In this document: one piece after another, positions 13,653 to 57,183 of the stretch
How the letters are laid out: the number at the start of each line of letters is the position of its first letter
Numbering within the stretch: the stretch's first letter is position 1
From: a virus
Lineage: Duplodnaviria; Caudoviricetes
IMG/VR virus record: IMGVR_UViG_3300025138_000041
Coordinates: 1 to 61,380 of that record
Reading direction: 5' to 3' (one strand)
Length of the DNA stretch: 61,380 nucleotides
Notes under the pieces: generated by a model
Database searches by the model: none
Seen by the model: only the letters and a program-made list of their open reading frames with translations
What the model was told of the DNA's origin: nothing
Translations under genes and position numbers: made by a program

Positions 13653-14012
13653 ATGAGACTTAAAGGTAAAGTTGAAAAAGGTTGGGGACACGAAACGATC
13701 TTTGCTACAAATGATTTGTATTGTGGAAAACTTCTAGTATTTGAAAAAGCTAATTCTCAGTTCTCCATGCATTTTCATTCAGAAAAAGATGAAACTTGGT
13801 ATATACATTCTGGTATTTTTAACGTTGATTGGATAGACACTAAAGACGCATCAGAACACACTCAAGCTTTAAAAGAAGGAGATACTTGGAGAAATACACC
13901 ACTATTTCCTCACAGATTAACATGTATAAAACCAGGAACTATTATTGAAGTTTCTACGCCAGACTCTGTTGAAGATAACTATAGAATTAGTAAGGGCGAT
14001 AGTCAAAAATGA
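13653..14012 (+). CDS. cupin-fold sugar isomerase-like protein
   Basis: KGWGHE, SMHFHxxKDETW, PH, EVSTPDSVEDNYR. Confidence 0.75.
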   Translation: MRLKGKVEKGWGHETIFATNDLYCGKLLVFEKANSQFSMHFHSEKDETWYIHSGIFNVDWIDTKDASEHTQALKEGDTWRNTPLFPHRLTCIKPGTIIEVSTPDSVEDNYRISKGDSQK

Positions 14013-14947
14013 AAATATTCATCACAGGTATAGCAGGATTCATAGGTTATCATCTTGCAAGAAAGCTTTTTTCTCAAGGCCACCATGTACTAGGTATTGA
14101 TAGTTATAATCATTATTATGATGTTTCTCTTAAAAGATCACGCACCGCAAAGCTAGAAGACCTAGGAATTGAAGTTTCTTATGGCGATTTAACATTAACT
14201 ACATTTAAATCTGATTGGTATAACAAGCTTAATAATGTTGATGCTGTTGTACATTTAGCAGCATATGCAGGAGTTAGATATTCATTAGAGTTTCCTAAGC
14301 TATACATTAACAATAACATAATTGGAACACAAAATCTTATTGAAGCGTGTGAGAATTGGAATGTTAATAAAGTGCTTTATGCTTCTACATCATCCGTGAT
14401 GAATGGTAATCCTGTTCCGTGGGATGAAAACACAAAGCTATATAATCAAAAGCATCCTTATGGATATTCTAAAGTCGTGAATGAATCTCAATTTCAAATG
14501 AGTAATATTAAAAATTCTATCGGTATGAGGTTCTTTACTGTTTATGGACCTTGGGGTAGACCAGATATGGCACTTTTCGATTTCACAAAGAATATTCTTG
14601 CTGGTAATGAGATTTCAGTATTTAATAATGGTGACATGGTACGTGACTTCACATATATTGACGATATTGTAATTGGAGTAACAATTTTATTAGAACAATC
14701 AGGAAAGAACATATATAATATTGGAAGAGGTGAAAAAGTTCAACTTATGGATTTTATCCACGAAATTGAAAAGAACTTAAATCAAAAAGCAAAAATAAAA
14801 ATGGCACCTATGCATCCAGCAGACGCGAAAGAAACTTGGAGTAATACAGATAAATTAAAAGCTTTAGGTTATAATCCCGAAGTTTCTATTGCTGAGGGCG
14901 TTGAAAACTTTGTAAACTGGTACAAAGATTATTATAAGGTAAATTAA
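14009..14947 (+). CDS. NAD-dependent epimerase, UDP-glucuronate 4-epimerase-like
   Basis: TGIAGFIG, HLAAYAGVRYS, YGYSK, RFFTVYGPWGRPDMA, RDFTYIDD. Confidence 0.9.
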   Translation: MKIFITGIAGFIGYHLARKLFSQGHHVLGIDSYNHYYDVSLKRSRTAKLEDLGIEVSYGDLTLTTFKSDWYNKLNNVDAVVHLAAYAGVRYSLEFPKLYINNNIIGTQNLIEACENWNVNKVLYASTSSVMNGNPVPWDENTKLYNQKHPYGYSKVVNESQFQMSNIKNSIGMRFFTVYGPWGRPDMALFDFTKNILAGNEISVFNNGDMVRDFTYIDDIVIGVTILLEQSGKNIYNIGRGEKVQLMDFIHEIEKNLNQKAKIKMAPMHPADAKETWSNTDKLKALGYNPEVSIAEGVENFVNWYKDYYKVN

Positions 14948-15643
14948 ATGAAATCATATGCGATAACTCTTAAAGGTAACAAAATCTCAGAACAAGGGTT
15001 TGATGCTCTTTGGCTCAGTTCAAAGAAACTTGGCAATGATTTTAATATCGAAAAGTTTGAAGCGACCGATCACATAAAAGTGGGCGCTGAAATGATGCAT
15101 TGGGATCTATTTTGGAATTACCCATGGGAAGGCAAAGTTACAGACTTAGCTACGGGTTTAATAAAGAGCGCATATCCAACAGCGGTAAAGACTAAACGCA
15201 TGGCTGCAGCCGTGTCACATTTTAGGCTATGGACTGAATGTTTTGAAAAGAAAGAGCCGATACTAATTCTAGAACATGATGCAATTTTTAGAAAAAAGTT
15301 AGATTACCAGCTGCTATTAGATTCAAAATATGATATAATAGGTATTAATGAGCCGAGAGGGGCAACAAGAAAATCAGCAGAATTTCATAGATTAATTCAA
15401 AAGAACAAAAACGAAATACAATCTGTTCCATCTGTAGACGATTATAATATTCCTCAAGGTATTGCAGGAAACTCTGCATATATAATCAAGCCAGAAGCGG
15501 CAGAAAAACTAATATCGTTATGCTTCAATCATGGTCTATGGCCAAATGATGCTATAATGTGTAAGCAGTTAGTAGATAACTTAGGCGTCAGCCGAACGTA
15601 TTATACTAACATTCAAAGACTACAATCAACTACAACAACCTAG
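14948..15643 (+). CDS. GT25-like glycosyltransferase
   Basis: SHFRLW, ILILEHDA, GNSAYIIKP. Confidence 0.7.
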   Translation: MKSYAITLKGNKISEQGFDALWLSSKKLGNDFNIEKFEATDHIKVGAEMMHWDLFWNYPWEGKVTDLATGLIKSAYPTAVKTKRMAAAVSHFRLWTECFEKKEPILILEHDAIFRKKLDYQLLLDSKYDIIGINEPRGATRKSAEFHRLIQKNKNEIQSVPSVDDYNIPQGIAGNSAYIIKPEAAEKLISLCFNHGLWPNDAIMCKQLVDNLGVSRTYYTNIQRLQSTTTT

Positions 15644-15659: not shown

Positions 15660-16718
15660 ATGAAAAAACTTTTAACAATCGTAGCAGCGGCTATGTTAGC
15701 GACAAGCGCATGGGCTGGGGATAAAGTTAAAGTAGGGTTCGTATATGTCGGACCAACTGGTGATCATGGCTGGACGTATCGCCATGACATTGGTAGACAA
15801 GATGTACAAGATCATTTTGGTGATCAAGTCGAAACATTTTTTGTAGAAAGTGTAAGTGAAGGACCAGATGCCGAGCGTGTAATCAACGCTATGGTCTTAC
15901 AGGGCGCAGACATTATTTTTACAACATCATTTGGATATATGGAAGCTACGTTAAAAATGGCTAACCGTTATCCACATGTTAAATTCGAACATGCTACTGG
16001 ATATAAGCAAGCAAAAAATATGTCAAGTTATGGCTTACGCTTATATCAAGCTAGACATGTTCAAGGCGTGATTGCTGGTTTAATGACTAAATCGAACAAG
16101 ATTTGTTATATTGGTGCATATCCAATTCCAGAAGTTATCCGTGAGATTAACACATATTTCATGGGTGCGCGTAGTATGAATCCAGACGTTGAAATGGATA
16201 TTGTATGGGTAAATACTTGGTATGATCCAGGAAAAGAGTCAGATGCAGCTAAAGTTCTAATGGCACAAGGTTGTGATATGGTTGCACAACATACTGATTC
16301 ACCTGCACCCATGCAGTCAGCAGAGCAACAGGGAAAGTTCGGTTTTGGACAAGCATCTGACCAAATTGCATTCGCGCCCAAAGCACAACTGACCGCAACT
16401 ATCGATAACTGGTCACCTTACTATATTCGTAAAGTGCAAGCAGTAATTGATGGTAATTGGGAAAGTGAGGACTATTTTGGACATATGAACGAAGGTGTTG
16501 TTATGATGGCACCATTTACAAATATGCCAGATGAAGTTCGTAGCATTGCGGCTGATATTATGCAACAGATTAGTGACGGTGAATATTTCGCTTTCACTGG
16601 ACCAATCAAAGATCAATCAGGCGAAATTCGTATTCAAGCTGGAAAGGTAGCTACAGACGGCGAGTTGAACAGCATGAATTATTACGTCGAAGGAATTACC
16701 GCAAGATTTCCAAATTAA
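15660..16718 (+). CDS. BMP/PnrA-family ABC transporter substrate-binding protein (purine/nucleoside)
   Basis: Signal peptide; KVGFVYVGP.GDHGWTY.HD.GR, TTSFGYM, HATGYK, QHTDSPA. Confidence 0.9.
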   Translation: MKKLLTIVAAAMLATSAWAGDKVKVGFVYVGPTGDHGWTYRHDIGRQDVQDHFGDQVETFFVESVSEGPDAERVINAMVLQGADIIFTTSFGYMEATLKMANRYPHVKFEHATGYKQAKNMSSYGLRLYQARHVQGVIAGLMTKSNKICYIGAYPIPEVIREINTYFMGARSMNPDVEMDIVWVNTWYDPGKESDAAKVLMAQGCDMVAQHTDSPAPMQSAEQQGKFGFGQASDQIAFAPKAQLTATIDNWSPYYIRKVQAVIDGNWESEDYFGHMNEGVVMMAPFTNMPDEVRSIAADIMQQISDGEYFAFTGPIKDQSGEIRIQAGKVATDGELNSMNYYVEGITARFPN

Positions 16719-17272: not shown

Positions 17273-17296
17273 AGGAGCCTTAGGGCTCCTTTTTTT
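17273..17296 (+). terminator. intrinsic terminator
   Basis: aggagcc-ttag-ggctcct followed by T run. Confidence 0.8.
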
Positions 17297-17313
17297 GAGG
17301 AGAAAAAAAGAGA

Positions 17314-18132
17314 ATGACGCAACTAATAAACCCACGTAAATTTACTAACGCAGTGTCCCTATTGAGGGACTTTTTTTTGACTAAAGGCTTTGAGGAAGTA
17401 CATACGCAAAATAGATTGAGTATCTTAGCCGCTTGTGAAGATCCTGAAAACGTAGCAAGTTATAATTATGAAGGCCAAGTTTGGCCATTACCTCAAACTG
17501 GTCAGATGTGGCTAGAACATGAATTACTTACCAGCCCCGATTCAAAGGGGTTTTTTTGTGTCTCAACGTCATATCGACAAGAGCCTAACGCAATTCCTGG
17601 TCGTCACGATACGATCTTTCCAATGTTTGAATTTGAAATGCCTGGTGACATTAATGATTTGAAACGTATGGAATATGAACTTTGTGATTTTTTAGGTTTC
17701 GGTACTATCACAGAAAAAACATATAATGAATGGCAGCAACATTATGGAGTAAGTGCTAGAACAGAACTAGATGCACAACACGAATTAGCAATGCAAGCAT
17801 CATTTGGTCCTTGTATGATTACAGACTTTCCAGAAATGACGAGTCCGTTTTGGAATATGAGTCGTAACGAAGATGGTACTAGCCGAAAGATTGATGTTAT
17901 TCTTGGTGGTATGGAAACAATTGGTAGTGCCGAACGAAGTATTGATAAAGAACAGATGAGAGATACATTTCATACAATTTCTGATGGAGAGTACGCAGGA
18001 CTTATTAAGAGTTTATTCGGAGATGATAGAGTTGAAGCGGAACTTGAAAAGTTTCTTGAATTTGATTTCTTTCCAAGAGTTGGCGGCGGTATCGGGATGA
18101 CAAGAATGATTGCAGCCCTAGACAAACTGTAA
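17314..18132 (+). CDS. class IIb (AsnRS/AspRS-like) aminoacyl-tRNA synthetase catalytic core lacking the N-terminal anticodon-binding domain
   Basis: Motif 1 RDFF..KGF.EV.T, LPQTGQMWLE, motif 2 SYRQEP..RH..FPMFEFEM, ETIGSAER, motif 3 GGGIGMTRM; only 272 aa. Confidence 0.85.
   Translation: MTQLINPRKFTNAVSLLRDFFLTKGFEEVHTQNRLSILAACEDPENVASYNYEGQVWPLPQTGQMWLEHELLTSPDSKGFFCVSTSYRQEPNAIPGRHDTIFPMFEFEMPGDINDLKRMEYELCDFLGFGTITEKTYNEWQQHYGVSARTELDAQHELAMQASFGPCMITDFPEMTSPFWNMSRNEDGTSRKIDVILGGMETIGSAERSIDKEQMRDTFHTISDGEYAGLIKSLFGDDRVEAELEKFLEFDFFPRVGGGIGMTRMIAALDKL
17355..17378 (+). terminator. intragenic terminator-like hairpin in the AsnRS-like gene
   Basis: gtccct-attg-agggac followed by T8. Confidence 0.6.
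17534..17557 (+). terminator. second, weaker intragenic terminator-like hairpin
   Basis: gcccc-gattcaaa-ggggt followed by T run. Confidence 0.4.
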
Positions 18133-18137
18133 ACTAA

Positions 18138-18244
18138 TCTGGGGTGGTGGAATTGGTAGACACGCGGTACTGTTTATACCGTGAATATATACTAGCGTAA
18201 ATGTATATTTATTCATGCAGGTTCGACTCCTGCCCCCAGAGCCA
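18138..18244 (+). tRNA. non-canonical tRNA-Asn(GUU) with class II-type D arm and 35-nt variable arm
   Basis: Acceptor tctgggg/ccccaga + G + CCA; anticodon arm cggta-ctGTTta-taccg; T arm gcagg-ttcgact-cctgc; variable region 18182-18216 forms a hairpin. Confidence 0.85.
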
Positions 18245-18256
18245 AAGGAAATAATA

Positions 18257-19120
18257 ATGATACCTATAATTGATTTTAATTCACCATACGCAAATCAACA
18301 TATTGAAGATGCCTATACATCTGTAGGTTTTGCCGTGTTTACTAATTGTTTGACAAAAACTGAAAACTCTGATATGATTAGTTGGTTTAGTGAAATGAAA
18401 GCATTTTTTAATTTACCTGATGAAATAAAGAAAAAGTATCCATATGAAGGAGACACTAATCTAGGCTATAGTATGGTAGGAGATGAAAATGTTGATCCTA
18501 CTGCACCGAAAGATATTAAAGAAAGTTTTAATTACAATAACACAAGAATGAGTGAATATCTCTGGCCAAGAGAATTGCCAGGATTTAAAACAACTGCAAT
18601 GCAGAGCATTGATGTAGCTGATAAACTCACACTTAGAATATTGAGCAGATTTGATGAAATTTTAAAATGTGGATCTACACTTGTAGATGCTCATATGCAG
18701 CCATTTAATACTACAAGGGTTATTCATTATCCCGCATATGAAGGAGAAATAACAGACCGACAAATGAGAATTGGTGAACATAGTGACTACGGAACCATTA
18801 CACTACTTTGGCAAATAAACGATGTTCCAGGATTGCAAGTACAAGATTTAAAAGGCGAATGGCATCCAGTGCCATATAATGTCGATGGTGTAGTTGTGAA
18901 TATTGGTGATCTACTTCAGAGATGGACAAATGATTACTTTAAAAGCACAAAACATAGAGTAGTTAATTCACATATACATAAAACTAGATTCAGTATGCCA
19001 CATTTTGTTGATCCTACTCCGGGTACTATAGTAGATAATTTACGTTTTCATGAAGCTTCTAAGTATCCGCCTATTGAGAGTAAAGAATATTTGATGTGGA
19101 GACTAGCACAAAGTTATTAA
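18257..19120 (+). CDS. 2OG-Fe(II) dioxygenase, isopenicillin-N-synthase family (start reassigned)
   Basis: IPIIDF start, HSDYGTITLL, VVNIGDLLQRWTND..KST.HRV, RFS; AAGGA RBS. Confidence 0.9.
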   Translation: MIPIIDFNSPYANQHIEDAYTSVGFAVFTNCLTKTENSDMISWFSEMKAFFNLPDEIKKKYPYEGDTNLGYSMVGDENVDPTAPKDIKESFNYNNTRMSEYLWPRELPGFKTTAMQSIDVADKLTLRILSRFDEILKCGSTLVDAHMQPFNTTRVIHYPAYEGEITDRQMRIGEHSDYGTITLLWQINDVPGLQVQDLKGEWHPVPYNVDGVVVNIGDLLQRWTNDYFKSTKHRVVNSHIHKTRFSMPHFVDPTPGTIVDNLRFHEASKYPPIESKEYLMWRLAQSY

Positions 19121-19131
19121 GGTTATACATT

Positions 19132-19908
19132 ATGAAATTGACATTATTAGGATATGGATTTGTAGGCAAAGCTGTTTACAACGTTTTAAAAGATCATCAT
19201 GATATCACAATTGTTGATCCAGAATACAACGATAATAAGATAGAAGATCAAGGTGATTCAGATGGTTATATCATTTGCTTGCCAACACCAGAAGGTAAAA
19301 ATGGTGAATGTGATATGAGCATTATATTTGAAATGCTCAATAGAATTCCAGTTGCGACTATAAGTCCATCAAATATTCTTATAAAGTCAACTATGTCAAT
19401 GGAAGGCTGGAGAGAAATTGAACAAACGTACAATCATTTAAACATATGTTTTTCTCCAGAATTTTTAACTGCAGCAAATGCAAATGAAGATTTCAAAAAA
19501 CAGACAGAAATGTTTTTTGGTGGAGGTGATGAATATTTTTGGATAGATATTTTTAATCCATGTAAAAAATTTACACCAATCTTTTCTCCAATACCCGAAC
19601 TTATCTTAATGAAGTATGTTAGAAATTCTTTCTTGGCAACAAAGGTAGCATTTTTTAATGAAATTTACGATCTTTGTTCTAAAATGAATTTACAGTACGA
19701 CGAAGTAAGTTACTTAGTGGGTATGGATAAAAGAATAGGATATTCACATATGAAAGTTCCTGGTCCAGATGGCAGAGGATTTGGTGGTGCTTGTTTTCCT
19801 AAAGACACGAAGGCACTATACAATTCTGCAAAACTTAAAGATCATTCTTTAGACATTCTTCACGCGGTTATCACTTCAAATGAAAAGGTAATAAAAGACA
19901 ATGTTTAA
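19132..19908 (+). CDS. ugd: UDP-glucose 6-dehydrogenase-like protein, short form without the C-terminal domain
   Basis: GYGFVG, ICLPTP, IKST, SPEFL, K...N.FLATKV.FFNE, GFGGACFPKD. Confidence 0.85.
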   Translation: MKLTLLGYGFVGKAVYNVLKDHHDITIVDPEYNDNKIEDQGDSDGYIICLPTPEGKNGECDMSIIFEMLNRIPVATISPSNILIKSTMSMEGWREIEQTYNHLNICFSPEFLTAANANEDFKKQTEMFFGGGDEYFWIDIFNPCKKFTPIFSPIPELILMKYVRNSFLATKVAFFNEIYDLCSKMNLQYDEVSYLVGMDKRIGYSHMKVPGPDGRGFGGACFPKDTKALYNSAKLKDHSLDILHAVITSNEKVIKDNV

Positions 19909-20899
19909 ATTTTTTACTTCAAAACACTGGATGCATTGGTCAATCTTCGGTACACTCTTAATTTTATTTTCTACGTGGTATCAGGTACAAATTGATGTTG
20001 CGATAAATGAATGGTTTGGTGATTTTTATAATAATCTCCAAAAAGCGTTAGCTACACCTGGTAGCATTACTGCCGCAGAGTTTTATGGATCATTAGCATC
20101 TTTCGGTTGGCTAGCAGTAAAGTTTATTGCTATTGCAGTAGTCACTAAATTTTTTGTATCTCATTGGATATTCAGATGGCGAACAAGTATGGTTGAGTAT
20201 TATCATGATAAGTTTAAATATGCTAGAAGTCTAGAAGGTGCGTCACAACGTATCCAAGAAGATACTATTAAATTTGCTAGAATCATGGAAGATTTGGGAG
20301 TTGGTCTGATGGAGTCAATCATGACTTTAATTGCTTTCATTCCTATTCTCATTGGTCTATCTGCGGCAGTTACACATTTGCCAATATTAGGCGAAGTTTC
20401 TAATTCTCTTATGTGGGTAGCACTTGCAACGGCATTAGGAGGTACCCTATTGCTTGCTGCAGTAGGAATCAGACTACCTGGAATTGAGTATGACATTCAA
20501 AAACGTGAAGCTGGTTACCGTAAAATTTTAGTCCATGCAGAAGATGATCCTAAAGCAGGTCAACCCAAAACTCTTGCGGAATTATTTGATTGGGTAAGAG
20601 ACATACATTTCAAATCGTATTTTCACTATGCATATTTCAACATGGCAAGATATTCGTATTTTCAAGGTATGGTTCTTGTTCCATATCTTGCATTGGGTCC
20701 TACAATTCTCGCGGGGACAATTACATTGGGTGCTCTACAACAAACAATAAGAGCGTTTGGTAGAGTAGAAAGTAGTTTACAGTATGTTGTTAAATCTTGG
20801 GCTGTTGTAGTTGAATTGATAAGTGTTTGGAAAAGATTGAGAGAATTTGAAGTTCAAATCAAGGTAGGCGAATCTTCAGATCCACGTTGGAGAGGTTAA
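19901..20899 (+). CDS. sbmA: SbmA/BacA-like peptide transporter
   Basis: Multiple TM helices; FRWRTSM.EYY, EGASQRIQED, EAGYRK.LV.AED. Confidence 0.85.
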   Translation: MFKFFTSKHWMHWSIFGTLLILFSTWYQVQIDVAINEWFGDFYNNLQKALATPGSITAAEFYGSLASFGWLAVKFIAIAVVTKFFVSHWIFRWRTSMVEYYHDKFKYARSLEGASQRIQEDTIKFARIMEDLGVGLMESIMTLIAFIPILIGLSAAVTHLPILGEVSNSLMWVALATALGGTLLLAAVGIRLPGIEYDIQKREAGYRKILVHAEDDPKAGQPKTLAELFDWVRDIHFKSYFHYAYFNMARYSYFQGMVLVPYLALGPTILAGTITLGALQQTIRAFGRVESSLQYVVKSWAVVVELISVWKRLREFEVQIKVGESSDPRWRG

Positions 20900-20905
20900 A
20901 AATAA

Positions 20906-21574
20906 ATGATAAAAGCATATGTGATAACAATAAGGGCTTTACCTAAATCCGTTAGATCCGCGAGTAGATGTATTATGTCGGCTGCAGATTATGATTTGGA
21001 AGGAGTTGAAATGTGGCAAGCAACTATTCCAGAAGATAATCCTGAAGAAATATTAAATGATCGAGGAATACCTACTCAAGGATTTTCTGAAATATACTCT
21101 AGACCTGAAAGATGTATGTCTGCTTTTGTTTCACATTATAAATTGTGGGAAAAATGTGCGGAAGAAAATGATGATGTTTATTTGATCTTTGAACATGATG
21201 CTGTTGTCGAAAATCAGATACCAGTAATACCAAAGATGCACTCACTTAAAGATCCGATGCTTTGCTCAATAGGTGCTCCGTCTTATGGCAAATTTAATAT
21301 TCCAACAAAACTTGGTGTTAATAAACTCATTTCAAAAGAATATTTACCTGGAGCACATGCTTATATGTTAAATTCTCCTGCAGCAAAGGCTCTAATTGAA
21401 AGAGCAAAAGTTGATGCAGGTCCTACAGACGTTTTTCTTCATAATAATAGATTTGATTTTTTATATGAATTGTATCCTTATGTTGCTGTAGCAAGAGATA
21501 GCTTTACTACAATTCAAAGAAAAGAGGGTTGTTTGGCAAAACACTCTTACGGAGATAAATATGAAATCATTTAA
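20906..21574 (+). CDS. GT25-like glycosyltransferase
   Basis: SHYKLW, IFEHDA, GAHAYML. Confidence 0.7.
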   Translation: MIKAYVITIRALPKSVRSASRCIMSAADYDLEGVEMWQATIPEDNPEEILNDRGIPTQGFSEIYSRPERCMSAFVSHYKLWEKCAEENDDVYLIFEHDAVVENQIPVIPKMHSLKDPMLCSIGAPSYGKFNIPTKLGVNKLISKEYLPGAHAYMLNSPAAKALIERAKVDAGPTDVFLHNNRFDFLYELYPYVAVARDSFTTIQRKEGCLAKHSYGDKYEII

Positions 21575-26419: not shown

Positions 26420-26496
26420 GGTCCCTTGGCTCAACTGGATAGAGCAACAGCCTTCTAAGCTGTAGGTTACAGGTTCGAGTCCTGTAGGGTCCGCCA
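26420..26496 (+). tRNA. tRNA-Arg(UCU)
   Basis: acagc-ctTCTaa-gctgt, GTTCGAG T loop, encoded CCA. Confidence 0.95.
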
Positions 26497-26705: not shown

Positions 26706-26781
26706 GCGAGAGTAGCTTAGTGGTTAAAGCCCCCCGCTCATAACGGGTTGATCGTAGGTTCAAATCCTACCTCTCGCACCA
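26706..26781 (+). tRNA. tRNA with CAU anticodon (Met or Ile2)
   Basis: gcgagag/ctctcgc acceptor, ctCATaa loop, gtagg-ttcaaat-cctac, ACCA. Confidence 0.92.
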
Positions 26782-56314: not shown

Positions 56315-57183
56315 GTATTTCTGGAGAATATTACGGAGATAATTTTAGATGGTTCTTCGGTGTTGTTGAAAATAACAATGATCCATTGAAATTAGGTCGC
56401 GTTCAAGTTAGAGTTCATGGATTACATTCTCAAAACTTGACTGATATTCCTTTGAGTAGTTTGCCTTGGGCACAAGTTGTACTTCCTTCAACAGAAGGCG
56501 GTATATCAGGTATTGGTAGAATGGGCAAAATATTGCCTGGAGCGCAGGTATTTGGATTTTTTATGGATTCTAAAAACTCTCAATTGCCTATGGTAATAGG
56601 ATCATTTCACACAACAGAGAAAAGTTTACCTAATACATATAAATCAAATGGAAATACAAGTAGTAAAGCATTAGATAATGGAGAAGATGGTTCATCTTAT
56701 ACAAGATTAGCTGGACATCCATCTGGCAGTACAATTACTTATAACGGTAGTGAATTAACAGGTTCAACTAATGGAGAACAGTGCTATAATTTCTATCTTG
56801 CTAATGGGTTTACTCCTAATCAAAGTGCAGGAATTTGTGGCAACTTTGCTGCAGAATCTAATCTAAAACCAGATGTTTTAAACCCTAATGATCTAGGAAA
56901 ACCTGCATTTGGATTAGCACAATGGAGAGGTGACAGACGAGCAGGTCTAAAAGATTTTTCTTCGGATCACGGTTTAAGCTATAGAACATTAGAAGCACAG
57001 CTACTTTGGTCTATGCACGAATTTAGAAATGCAGAAAAACGCGCATATGGTAAAATAATTGCAGCGAACACTCTGAAAGAAGCTACATATGCTGTAGAAA
57101 AATATTATGAAAGACCTCAACCGGGAACATTTAGTAAGAGGTATAATTTTGCTAGGCAAGTATTAGAGAGGTATTCGCAATGA
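56311..57183 (+). CDS. gp5: gp5 N-terminal OB domain fused to phage-tail-lysozyme domain
   Basis: WFFGVVE...DPLKLGRV.VRV.G.H...LPWA, V.GFF.D; GN..AES, GLAQW...R, YERP. Confidence 0.85.
   Translation: MSISGEYYGDNFRWFFGVVENNNDPLKLGRVQVRVHGLHSQNLTDIPLSSLPWAQVVLPSTEGGISGIGRMGKILPGAQVFGFFMDSKNSQLPMVIGSFHTTEKSLPNTYKSNGNTSSKALDNGEDGSSYTRLAGHPSGSTITYNGSELTGSTNGEQCYNFYLANGFTPNQSAGICGNFAAESNLKPDVLNPNDLGKPAFGLAQWRGDRRAGLKDFSSDHGLSYRTLEAQLLWSMHEFRNAEKRAYGKIIAANTLKEATYAVEKYYERPQPGTFSKRYNFARQVLERYSQ

Follow-up and report, generated by a model that had tools for sequence, protein, structure and literature searches.

An AsnRS-like synthetase core and a long-armed tRNA-Asn linked in phages, with cellular enzyme relatives that appear tied to pyrimidine synthesis

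Results

An AsnRS-like catalytic core lies directly upstream of a long-armed tRNA

We analyzed a 61,380-nt stretch of viral DNA (Duplodnaviria, Caudoviricetes; IMG/VR record IMGVR_UViG_3300025138_000041, positions 1 to 61,380), hereafter the window, in which a gene for a small protein resembling the catalytic core of asparaginyl-tRNA synthetase (AsnRS) is followed by a gene for a tRNA with a GUU anticodon and a long variable arm. The stop codon of the enzyme gene ends at 18132 and the tRNA begins at 18138, which leaves a gap of 5 nt; the two genes are here called the cassette, and its features are listed in Table 1 together with those of the neighboring genes. The window has 34% G+C, and the record is about 30% complete according to CheckV.

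The sole Pfam family identified in the enzyme was PF00152 (tRNA-synt_2, class II synthetases for D, K and N; E = 3.2e-15, 56.5 bits against a cut-off of 25), with residues 11-269 of the protein aligned to positions 26-292 of the 308 positions of the profile. Since the enzyme starts at profile position 26 and has 272 amino acids, there is no space for an N-terminal OB-fold domain. A fusion to an OB domain was looked for among the longer proteins of the family and none was found, the only fusions being to dihydroorotate dehydrogenase (DHODH), to orotidine 5'-monophosphate (OMP) decarboxylase and to an intein. The open reading frame (ORF) and the PF00152 coordinates thus bear out a first, sequence-only reading of this DNA, which had described a 272-residue class IIb core devoid of the OB domain. 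In PHROGs, the enzyme corresponds to phrog_29758 (E = 6e-131), a group with no function assigned, and a search of a protein atlas returned only the enzyme's own viral 'tRNA ligase' clusters.

More specific family models did not accommodate the enzyme. The NCBIfam models of AsnRS, aspartyl-tRNA synthetase (AspRS), lysyl-tRNA synthetase (LysRS), archaeal AsnA and EpmA gave weak partial matches of 10-27 bits against cut-offs of 264-1026. The enzyme fell below the AsnRS equivalog cut-offs (TIGR00457, 20.7 vs 342.6 bits; NF003037, 22.3 vs 414), below those for membership in EpmA/PoxA (TIGR00462, 14.2 vs 286.9 bits; NF006828, 12.4 vs 264) and below that of NF005055 (20.2 bits vs 389), and TIGR00669 was absent among the matches at E <= 1. 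Using a profile built from 54 family members (profile A1) against the PDB, AsnRS ranked best (2xgt, 1.1e-14; human NARS1, about 2e-13), followed by archaeal-type AspRS (5e-13), archaeal AsnA (3p8t, 3.8e-7) and EpmA (3a5z, about 5e-5). When a 67-aa segment surrounding the pocket was compared with the PDB, only chance matches resulted.

To place the conserved residues, the enzyme was aligned with canonical AsnRS, AspRS and LysRS taken from three of the genomes in this study (G002-G004), in which the AsnRS scores above the TIGR00457 cut-off and the AspRS and LysRS labels were assigned from motifs and length. Motifs 1-3 of the enzyme align with those of the canonical proteins. Motif 2 retains R-x-E...R-H and has a proline-rich loop, E-P-N-P-I-P-G, and motif 3 of the family reads P-R-x-G-G-G-I-G-x-T-R. 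In the pocket motif of the family, PLPQTGQMWLE, a Leu replaces the Lys of AspRS (LPQSPQLFKQ) and a Glu stands at the Glu of AsnRS; by alignment, Leu and Glu occupy the positions of the AspRS Lys and Gln, where AsnRS has Gly or Leu and then Glu. Judged from this alignment, the pocket may be of the AsnRS and not of the AspRS type, if the pocket and motif residues have the roles that we ascribe to them.

The tRNA is constrained and of Asn type, and is not canonical

The window tRNA matched Rfam RF00005 with 44.4 bits (gathering score 29) over 18138-18241, with an insertion of 32 nt in the variable region. ARAGORN did not call it, and for many relatives it took the tRNA for an Asp, Gly, Glu or Ile tRNA with an intron. 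The acceptor stem is UCUGGGG/CCCCAGA, giving U1-A72, and is followed by G73 at 18241 and CCA at 18242-18244; the D stem consists of 3 bp and a G.A pair, and the anticodon stem CGGUA/UACCG closes the loop CUGUUUA. The minimum-free-energy fold of this sequence is a cloverleaf (-33.1 kcal/mol, z = -2.1). A T4-type late promoter on the minus strand of the A+U-rich arm was considered and dropped, as it was seen in the window version only.

A covariance model (R1) was built from 53 distinct tRNAs located downstream of enzyme relatives, and the window tRNA scored 102.6 bits against it. Across these 53 tRNAs, 99.9% of the cells pair and 14 of 20 base pairs are changed on both sides; none of 500 shuffles reached the observed values, and slid controls paired at 35-64%. 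R1 also matches ordinary tRNA-Leu genes, with 54-63 bits. All the features that the sequence-only reading had attributed to this 107-nt tRNA (5-nt gap, GUU, U1-A72, G73, U37 and a 35-nt arm) are present, the Leu-like body that it described is supported by the matches of R1 to tRNA-Leu, and the covariation that it called for is borne out by the double changes.

Statistics for individual positions came from 74 distinct tRNA sequences that passed a strict parse. The GUU anticodon and G73 occur in all 74, U1-A72 in 73 and an encoded CCA in 67. At position 37, 59 tRNAs have U, 12 have A and 3 have C; position 33 is U in 71, with C, A and G once each; and positions 32/38 are C or U and A, C or G, of which few combinations occur. 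The variable region's length in the relatives ranges from 12 to 39 nt. The long-armed tRNA therefore carries the canonical bacterial tRNA-Asn identity set (GUU, G73, U1-A72) without the short variable loop and A37 of canonical tRNA-Asn. In published work, the anticodon and G73 are given as the identity elements for both AsnRS and non-discriminating AspRS, and U1-A72 as that for GatCAB (PMC9976931, PMC1635274), and N6-threonylcarbamoyladenosine (t6A) at position 37 of yeast tRNA-Asn is described as an antideterminant against AspRS (PMC9976931). A U at position 37 is unable to carry t6A. The long-armed tRNA is a real, constrained, non-canonical tRNA of the Asn type. At position 33, the G, A or C found at loci L074, L126/L127, L143 and L152 may reflect sequencing error, decay or tolerated variation.

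Three observations suggest that it is not simply the decoding tRNA-Asn of the phage. The long-armed tRNA is the only tRNA of phage P-SSM2 and of G144, a 179-kb contig that is complete according to CheckV. G143, the 133-kb contig of locus L031, encodes a canonical 76-nt tRNA-Asn with the loop CUGUUAA (L374:1763-1838) in a cluster of nine tRNAs, and has a long-armed tRNA(GUU) adjoining the enzyme as well (56953-57049 of the contig). Asn accounts for 6.2% of codons in the window and is no more frequent there than Lys or Ile. ARAGORN reports only two ordinary tRNAs in the window, Arg(UCU) and Met(CAU), at 26420-26496 and 26706-26781 (+ strand).

Enzyme and tRNA are a conserved, tightly linked pair in phages

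The same gene is present in the cultured Prochlorococcus myophages P-SSM7, P-SSM2 and P-SSM5 (64-70% protein identity), where it is annotated as 'tRNA ligase' and followed, after about 8-10 nt, by an 85-88-nt 'tRNA-Asn' with the loop CUGUUUA. The context of the cassette differs among these phages: gp23 and gp3 flank it in P-SSM7, and its neighbors in P-SSM2 are unrelated genes. The tail protein of the window is at most 27% identical to that of any cultured phage, and the backbone of the window differs from that of the Kyanoviridae with which it shares the cassette.

At least 596 stretches in IMG/VR encode a relative of the enzyme, and tRNA linkage was judged on the 80 best of them. The tRNA lies downstream of the enzyme in 76 of these 80 (75 complete and one cut by the contig end), and the enzyme stands without it at four loci (L016, L017, L036 and L052). 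The reciprocal scan of viral contigs used a pattern derived from the tRNA alone and covered 80 loci of at least 120 matches, 21 of the 80 being repeats of earlier loci. The enzyme was directly upstream of the tRNA in all 76 testable cases, the other four having less than 75 nt of upstream sequence. Within this sample, the tRNA never occurs without the enzyme and the enzyme occasionally occurs without the tRNA. Enzyme and tRNA are a conserved, tightly linked pair, and the co-occurrence of the long-armed tRNA with homologues of the enzyme, which had been anticipated for this locus, holds in close viral relatives.

The gap between gene and tRNA is 4-11 nt, with no promoter-like site in between, and in the window no strong sigma-70-like site was found between the terminator-like hairpin at 17273-17297 and the ATG of the enzyme. 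Contigs from RNA libraries (three runs, two studies), which are weak evidence, and of presence only, as DNA is a possible source, transcript ends are not visible in them and gaps in their coverage carry no meaning, are 90-99% like parts of the gene and the tRNA; one of them, 151 nt long, spans 18117-18265 and so covers the end of the coding sequence (CDS), the whole tRNA and 21 nt beyond, and others join a related enzyme C-terminus to a related tRNA. Two further terminator-like hairpins with T-runs lie within the first third of the enzyme CDS (17355-17378 and 17533-17560, + strand), and the 1.8-kb region contains five terminator-like sites, compared with 1.0 expected from shuffles.

The wider enzyme family is largely without the tRNA

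The family is large: at least 8000 protein clusters at 90% identity match the enzyme and, in a set of 15 billion proteins reduced to a single representative for each cluster at 50% identity, 671 matched with E <= 0.001, 168 of them with E <= 1e-30. Their length is nearly always 260-310 amino acids. Among the longer forms, a fusion to PF01180 (DHODH) occurs in 11 clusters and one to PF00215 (OMP decarboxylase) in a single cluster. A 498-aa relative, P0283, has a LAGLIDADG_3 domain (PF14528), which suggests an intein or an inserted homing endonuclease.

A second scan of viral sequences, with one fused family protein as the query, returned 80 loci, most of them in giant-virus bins or similar AT-rich contigs and with 50-59% identity to the window enzyme. 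The tRNA was missing in 59 of the 80, undecidable in one and present in 20 phage-like loci (56-69% identity). One giant-virus bin has a canonical 74-nt tRNA-Asn elsewhere, and the huge phage LR756508 has a canonical tRNA-Asn too. Among prokaryotes, one genome per species was scanned with the window protein, giving 76 loci. Six of these are phage-like (64-85% identity) and have the tRNA; the other 70, some of which are on megabase contigs, do not. These tRNA-less loci belong to metagenome-assembled genomes (MAGs) of Weeksellaceae/Moheibacter, Chitinophagales, Aureispira, Chlamydiae, Patescibacteria, DPANN archaea, Dependentiae, Alphaproteobacteria and Myxococcota. Homologues with an adjacent tRNA, as looked for by the sequence-only reading, are thus found among close phage relatives, and not among the bacteria, archaea, giant viruses and huge phages of the wider family.

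We built a FastTree phylogeny of 203 distinct enzymes translated from the loci. The main clade has 91 tips, of which 83 are linked to the tRNA, seven are without it and one is undecidable. Beside it stands a 77-tip clade of cellular and giant-virus enzymes, and an 18-tip outgroup contains Chlamydiae, DPANN and huge phages. A small separate clade comprises L155, L157 and L165, which have a tRNA, plus L132, which does not. Support at the deep nodes is low (0.43-0.84). The tRNAs of L157 and L165 keep the long arm; that of L155 (L155:3515-3591), which is 77 nt long and lies 124 nt downstream of the gene, combines a short variable loop with G37 and a mismatched anticodon stem.

A comparison of 86 linked with 109 unlinked enzymes identified 93 positions that are at least 85% conserved with the same residue in both sets, among them all the motif and pocket residues and the motif-2 loop E-P-N-P/A-I/V-P/E-G-R-H; the tRNA-less relatives, at 46-60% identity, share these 93 positions. 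Because of these common positions, linked and unlinked enzymes are probably isofunctional. Only 15 positions are specific to the tRNA-linked clade. Six positions are richer in basic residues in the linked enzymes and four in the unlinked ones, and the mean net charge is -19 in the former and -12 in the latter, so that nothing in these comparisons suggests a newly acquired RNA-binding surface in the linked enzymes.

Cellular relatives appear tied to pyrimidine synthesis

Clustering of neighboring ORFs, combined with Pfam assignments, showed DHODH directly downstream of the cellular enzyme gene in 11 loci of several phyla and a fusion of orotate phosphoribosyltransferase (OPRT) with OMP decarboxylase downstream in eight cellular loci; one or both were found in 14 of 59 loci. 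We also compared the presence of pathway genes in genomes carrying the enzyme with that in 14 control genomes, using family cut-offs and, for DHODH, E <= 1e-20. Aspartate transcarbamoylase (ATCase; TIGR00670) was above the cut-off in none of 20 carriers and in all 14 controls. Similarly, pyrC_multi (TIGR00857) was above the cut-off in 0/20 carriers, six of which have matches of 186-222 bits, and in 11/14 controls, and CarB (TIGR01369) in 4/23 carriers and 14/14 controls. As for the later steps, OMP decarboxylase (PF00215) was found in 15 of 20 carriers and DHODH (PF01180) in 9 of 20, each being present in all 14 controls. The carrier genomes are MAGs of unreported completeness, which makes each single absence soft; the pattern of missing genes across them, taken as a whole, is not soft.

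Within Weeksellaceae, an even sample of 121 genomes contained four with the enzyme; ATCase was present in 90 of the 117 non-carriers and in none of the four carriers (hypergeometric P 0.0037, calculated by hand). Four of the five Weeksellaceae carriers tested, as well as G002 and G004, have AsnB, and its presence in those four Weeksellaceae implies that the enzyme is not needed there as an asparagine synthetase. Taken together, neighborhood, fusion and phyletic pattern tie the cellular family to pyrimidine synthesis, in which the early steps appear to be replaced. Such a replacement of the first pyrimidine steps in carriers looks undescribed. The signal comes from loci L185-L253, proteins P0271-P0283 and genomes G002-G011, G020, G109, G124 and G132-G141.

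Genomic surroundings and earlier records

In the window, the cassette is surrounded by genes for an NAD-dependent epimerase, two family-25 glycosyltransferases and a UDP-glucose-dehydrogenase-like protein (Table 1). The suggestion that the pair might serve products of these flanking glycosylation genes fails, as the contexts in P-SSM7, P-SSM2 and other contigs are unrelated. The gene for a PnrA/Bmp lipoprotein sits two small ORFs upstream of the cassette; its matches in the phage collection are to uncultured 'Bacteriophage sp.' records only, with 21-39% identity.

Table 1. Features of the cassette and of its surroundings in the window.
Feature	Position	Strand	Basis
Class IIb synthetase catalytic core, AsnRS-like, without anticodon-binding domain, 272 aa	17314..18132	+	ORF; PF00152; phrog_29758
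Type-II tRNA, 107 nt, anticodon GUU, U1-A72, G73, CCA encoded	18138..18244	+	Rfam; R1; covariation; fold
Anticodon G34 U35 U36 (18172-18174) and U37 (18175)	18172..18175	+	Sequence reading
Variable region, 35 nt, A+U-rich hairpin of 10 bp with 2-nt bulge	18182..18216	+	Fold
Terminator-like hairpin and T-run, ending the upstream small ORFs, before the purine-rich leader of the enzyme	17273..17297	+	7-bp stem, 5 G-C pairs, T7 tail; consensus match only
Sugar-modification set: NAD-dependent epimerase/dehydratase, two family-25 glycosyltransferases, short UDP-glucose-dehydrogenase-like ORF	14009-15643 and 19096-21574	+	
PnrA/Bmp-type nucleoside-binding lipoprotein, ABC substrate-binding, signal peptide	15660-16718	+	PF02608, E 1e-48
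2-oxoglutarate (2OG)-Fe(II) oxygenase, 3' of the tRNA here and in several close relatives	18257-19120	+	
SbmA/BacA-like inner-membrane transporter	19901-20899	+	PF05992, E 3e-131

Both genes are already in GenBank, since the gene and a 'tRNA-Asn' are annotated in the P-SSM2, P-SSM5 and P-SSM7 records. In the accessible part of Sullivan et al. 2010 (PMC3037559), 'tRNA ligase' (T4-GC 194) is listed in 2 of 16 cyanophages, and the terms pyrE, orotate and pyrimidine are absent from that main text. In a full-text search of the literature that covered main texts, neither the pair nor a long-armed tRNA-Asn nor a synthetase-like pyrimidine enzyme was found described; these tRNAs may be listed in supplements to PMC3037559 and PMC5389517.

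Discussion

A possible pyrimidine enzyme with a proposed carrier tRNA

An explanation has to accommodate two sets of results: the tRNA is dependent on the enzyme, and the enzyme, which needs no tRNA, behaves as an early pyrimidine enzyme that works without carbamoyl phosphate. For this reason we tentatively favor, as a possibility and not as the probable answer, a reading in which the cassette combines a pyrimidine enzyme that uses Asn with a private Asn-carrier tRNA that is loaded by host enzymes. The enzyme would be an AsnRS-derived, adenylate-forming core that binds Asn. In cells, the family would take the place of the carbamoyl-phosphate, ATCase and dihydroorotase steps and supply DHODH and UMP synthase. 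Its role in phages and giant viruses would be that of an auxiliary gene by which the regulated first part of pyrimidine synthesis is bypassed.

The tRNA would keep the elements that the host reads, GUU and G73 for AsnRS or a non-discriminating AspRS and U1-A72 for GatCAB, and would be relaxed at positions that bear on the quality of decoding, 37 being mostly U and 33 not always U. Because the host identity elements are kept and the decoding positions are relaxed, we read the tRNA as an extra scaffold for host-made Asn. A private carrier would matter in hosts that have no asparagine synthetase and make Asn only on tRNA; in the control genome of the cyanobacterium Synechococcus elongatus, neither AsnA nor AsnB was detected, and AsnB is present in many of the cellular carriers. 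The enzyme might draw Asn directly, through reversible aminoacyl transfer at the 3' end of the tRNA, or might use it after release. As a chemical suggestion, formation of Asn-AMP could be followed by capture of CO2 on the amine and closure via the side-chain amide, which would yield dihydroorotate. The pairing, the constraints on the tRNA, the distribution of the family, the genomic link to pyrimidine genes and the conservation across clades are observations; we infer here the substrate (Asn), the product (dihydroorotate), the loading by the host and the direction of transfer. In its most specific form, the proposal would be a one-enzyme route to dihydroorotate without carbamoyl phosphate, replacing CarAB, PyrB and PyrC, and fed in marine phages by a private, essentially non-decoding tRNA that a host non-discriminating AspRS and GatCAB load; we consider this full version quite unlikely.

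Several points weigh against the pyrimidine enzyme and its carrier tRNA. Substrate, product and contact with the tRNA are inferred for the whole family. The pyrimidine signal comes only from cellular relatives, with pyr neighbors within 1.5-3 kb at none of 104 tRNA-linked loci and at 3 of 58 giant-virus-like loci. Even among the carriers, DHODH is found in only 9 of 20, and in none of the chlamydial ones, at E <= 1e-20; in addition, 27 Weeksellaceae genomes have neither ATCase nor the enzyme, and the absences in carriers are soft as these are MAGs. The retention of U33 in 71 of 74 tRNAs and the few 32/38 combinations would fit a decoding tRNA too. The linked enzymes are very acidic (mean net charge of -19, against -12 in the unlinked ones), which does not favor direct binding of RNA. 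Finally, we know of no precedent for a tRNA-fed pyrimidine route.

Alternative explanations

The first alternative is the one advanced by the sequence-only reading, namely a dedicated, orthogonal pair. The core would form Asn-AMP and charge its own tRNA through the acceptor end alone (G73, U1-A72, C2-G71), which would make phage decoding of AAY codons independent of host AsnRS or transamidation, and a metabolic role may persist beside it. This is possible, though we doubt it, and we place it only slightly behind the carrier reading. Much of what we observed agrees with such a pair: the co-occurrence is strict, with the tRNA dependent on the enzyme; all class II motifs and an AsnRS-like pocket are kept, and a synthetase core would be expected to keep the transfer to the 3' end; and the acceptor end equals that of canonical phage tRNA-Asn (U1-A72, C2-G71, G73). 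Moreover, a decoder must keep GUU, which is invariant, CCA is encoded in 67 of 74 tRNAs, there is movement of the cassette across unrelated backbones (those of Kyanoviridae and of the window), and the separately branching clade of L155, L157 and L165 also has the tRNA.

However, enzymes with the same 93 positions work without the tRNA in cells, giant viruses and huge phages and in a pyrimidine context, and basic residues have not increased on balance in the linked clade (six positions vs four), which is the more acidic. An enzyme that reads the acceptor end only should also charge ordinary tRNA-Asn, which would make a special tRNA unnecessary, and hosts that lack asparagine synthetase may have little free Asn. 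It would be odd for a decoder to have a pyrimidine at position 37, as 62 of 74 tRNAs do, or to be without U33, as three are. With an arm of 12-39 nt and a short loop in L155, the long arm is not a fixed determinant, and its proposed role in identity is unlikely. The related proposal that other elements replace the anticodon in recognition is weakened, as GUU is invariant although the enzyme has no anticodon reader. What stands of the orthogonal pair is therefore a conserved, linked pair; that the enzyme was made by phages for this tRNA does not stand, given a broad, tRNA-less family tied to pyrimidines.

A second alternative, which we regard as unlikely, is that enzyme and tRNA are not functionally coupled. 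The enzyme would be an auxiliary metabolic enzyme, and the tRNA an odd phage tRNA-Asn charged by the host for use in translation, which arose once downstream of the gene and is co-transcribed with it, having no promoter of its own; its anticodon loop may evade anticodon nucleases. This would account for the gap of 4-11 nt without a promoter-like site, for an enzyme that works without the tRNA elsewhere and, being acidic, shows no sign of RNA binding, and for a variable arm that behaves as unconstrained sequence. The RNA-library contig over 18117-18265, which runs from the CDS end through the tRNA to 21 nt beyond, would fit co-transcription, weakly so as DNA is possible. Altered anticodon loops of phage tRNAs have been proposed to evade tRNA-targeting defenses (PMC10264068), and the loop described here would agree with that. 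Nevertheless, none of 76 testable tRNA copies occurs without the enzyme, from which, for its part, the tRNA has been lost on several occasions (7 of 91 tips of the main clade), and the cassette has been transferred whole among highly dissimilar phages. An absence of coupling would also leave unexplained the Leu-like, long-armed body, the retention of a canonical tRNA-Asn alongside in G143, and the presence of the long-armed tRNA as the sole tRNA of two large genomes (P-SSM2 and G144).

Third, the cassette could be a supply module for Asn, in which an ammonia-dependent asparagine synthetase, like archaeal AsnRS2/AsnA, and a tRNA-Asn raise both free Asn and its acceptor. The archaeal enzyme is likewise a stand-alone AsnRS-like core without an anticodon-binding domain (3p8t, E 3.8e-7), there is a weak match to NF005055, and three of the first five carriers tested (G003, G005 and G006) have no AsnA or AsnB over the cut-off, G003 and G005 having a canonical AsnRS. 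We nevertheless find this very unlikely: the NF005055 match reaches 20 bits against a cut-off of 389, the family profile is nearer to true AsnRS than to 3p8t, G002, G004 and four of the five Weeksellaceae carriers already have AsnB, and a supply module would explain neither why relatives are fused to DHODH or OMP decarboxylase nor why ATCase and CarB are missing. Highly improbable, lastly, is a modification of the tRNA in which the enzyme adds an amino acid to a base of the anticodon loop and not to the 3' end, as Glu-Q-RS, a truncated GluRS paralogue, does with tRNA-Asp: a truncated synthetase without an anticodon-binding domain does adjoin a tRNA with invariant G34-U35-U36, but its relatives stand beside pyr genes without any tRNA, and positions 33 and 37, which flank the anticodon, vary.

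Comparison with known systems

The family resembles AsnRS in its class II motifs, in its best PDB matches and in the pocket motif, where Q-T-G-Q-M-W-L-E is near the T-Q-S-S-Q-L-Y-L-E of AsnRS and has no AspRS Lys. It differs from AsnRS in the missing OB domain, in its score on TIGR00457 (20.7 vs 342.6 bits), in the proline-rich motif-2 loop, in a motif 3 with P-R-x-G-G-G and T-R, where the canonical enzymes have P-H-G-G-F-G and E/D-R, and in relatives that are linked to pyrimidine genes. The archaeal AsnRS2-type asparagine synthetase (AS-AR) is a stand-alone core that acts without tRNA. With AS-AR (3p8t, 1nnh) and AsnA, the family shares a stand-alone, AsnRS-like core of about 290 aa; unlike in those, the structural match is weaker (3.8e-7, against 1e-14 for AsnRS), the NF005055 cut-off is not reached, carriers often have AsnB, and the phage clade has its own tRNA.

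As in the route by which non-discriminating AspRS and GatCAB act on tRNA-Asn, the long-armed tRNA has GUU, G73 and U1-A72; in contrast to the tRNA-Asn of that route, it has a type-II body, mostly U at position 37, and a tie to a synthetase-like gene without an anticodon-binding domain. Synthetase-family genes stand side by side with their tRNAs in PylRS with tRNA-Pyl and in a ProRS-like protein with an anomalous tRNA-Pro in Streptomyces. The cassette is similar to these pairs in the adjacency of a synthetase-family gene and an anomalous tRNA gene and in strict co-occurrence. However, those enzymes are specialized for their tRNAs, whereas this one is near-unchanged in lineages without such a tRNA.

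Cyclodipeptide synthases are synthetase-like domains that use aminoacyl-tRNAs to make six-membered cyclic products. They provide a conceptual precedent for the proposed carrier tRNA, and by analogy only, in that a synthetase fold without an anticodon-binding domain takes a tRNA-activated amino acid into ring chemistry; theirs, however, is a class I fold with no sequence relation to this family. With allo-tRNAs, as described in the accessible part of PMC5389517, the long-armed tRNA shares a long variable arm combined with an anticodon that is not for Leu, Ser or Tyr, but allo-tRNAs have 8/4 or 9/3 acceptor/T branches and this tRNA has the normal 7/5. In that part of the paper, neither GUU nor cyanophage is mentioned for irregular long-arm tRNAs.

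Implications

If enzyme and tRNA work together, the cassette would represent a widespread natural synthetase core that has no anticodon reader and serves a structurally re-designed tRNA. This bears on the rebuilding of tRNA identity, on orthogonal pairs for genetic-code engineering and on the supply of Asn-tRNA or Asn by phages; cultured phages with the cassette (P-SSM2 and P-SSM7) exist, as do their hosts. The pyrimidine link is a separate lead and could be categorically new. If confirmed, the replacement of early pyrimidine steps would introduce a new entry into a pathway that is among the most conserved in central metabolism, and it would explain why the gene is found in some free-living Bacteroidota, in many members of the candidate phyla radiation (CPR), DPANN and Chlamydiae, in giant viruses and in phages.

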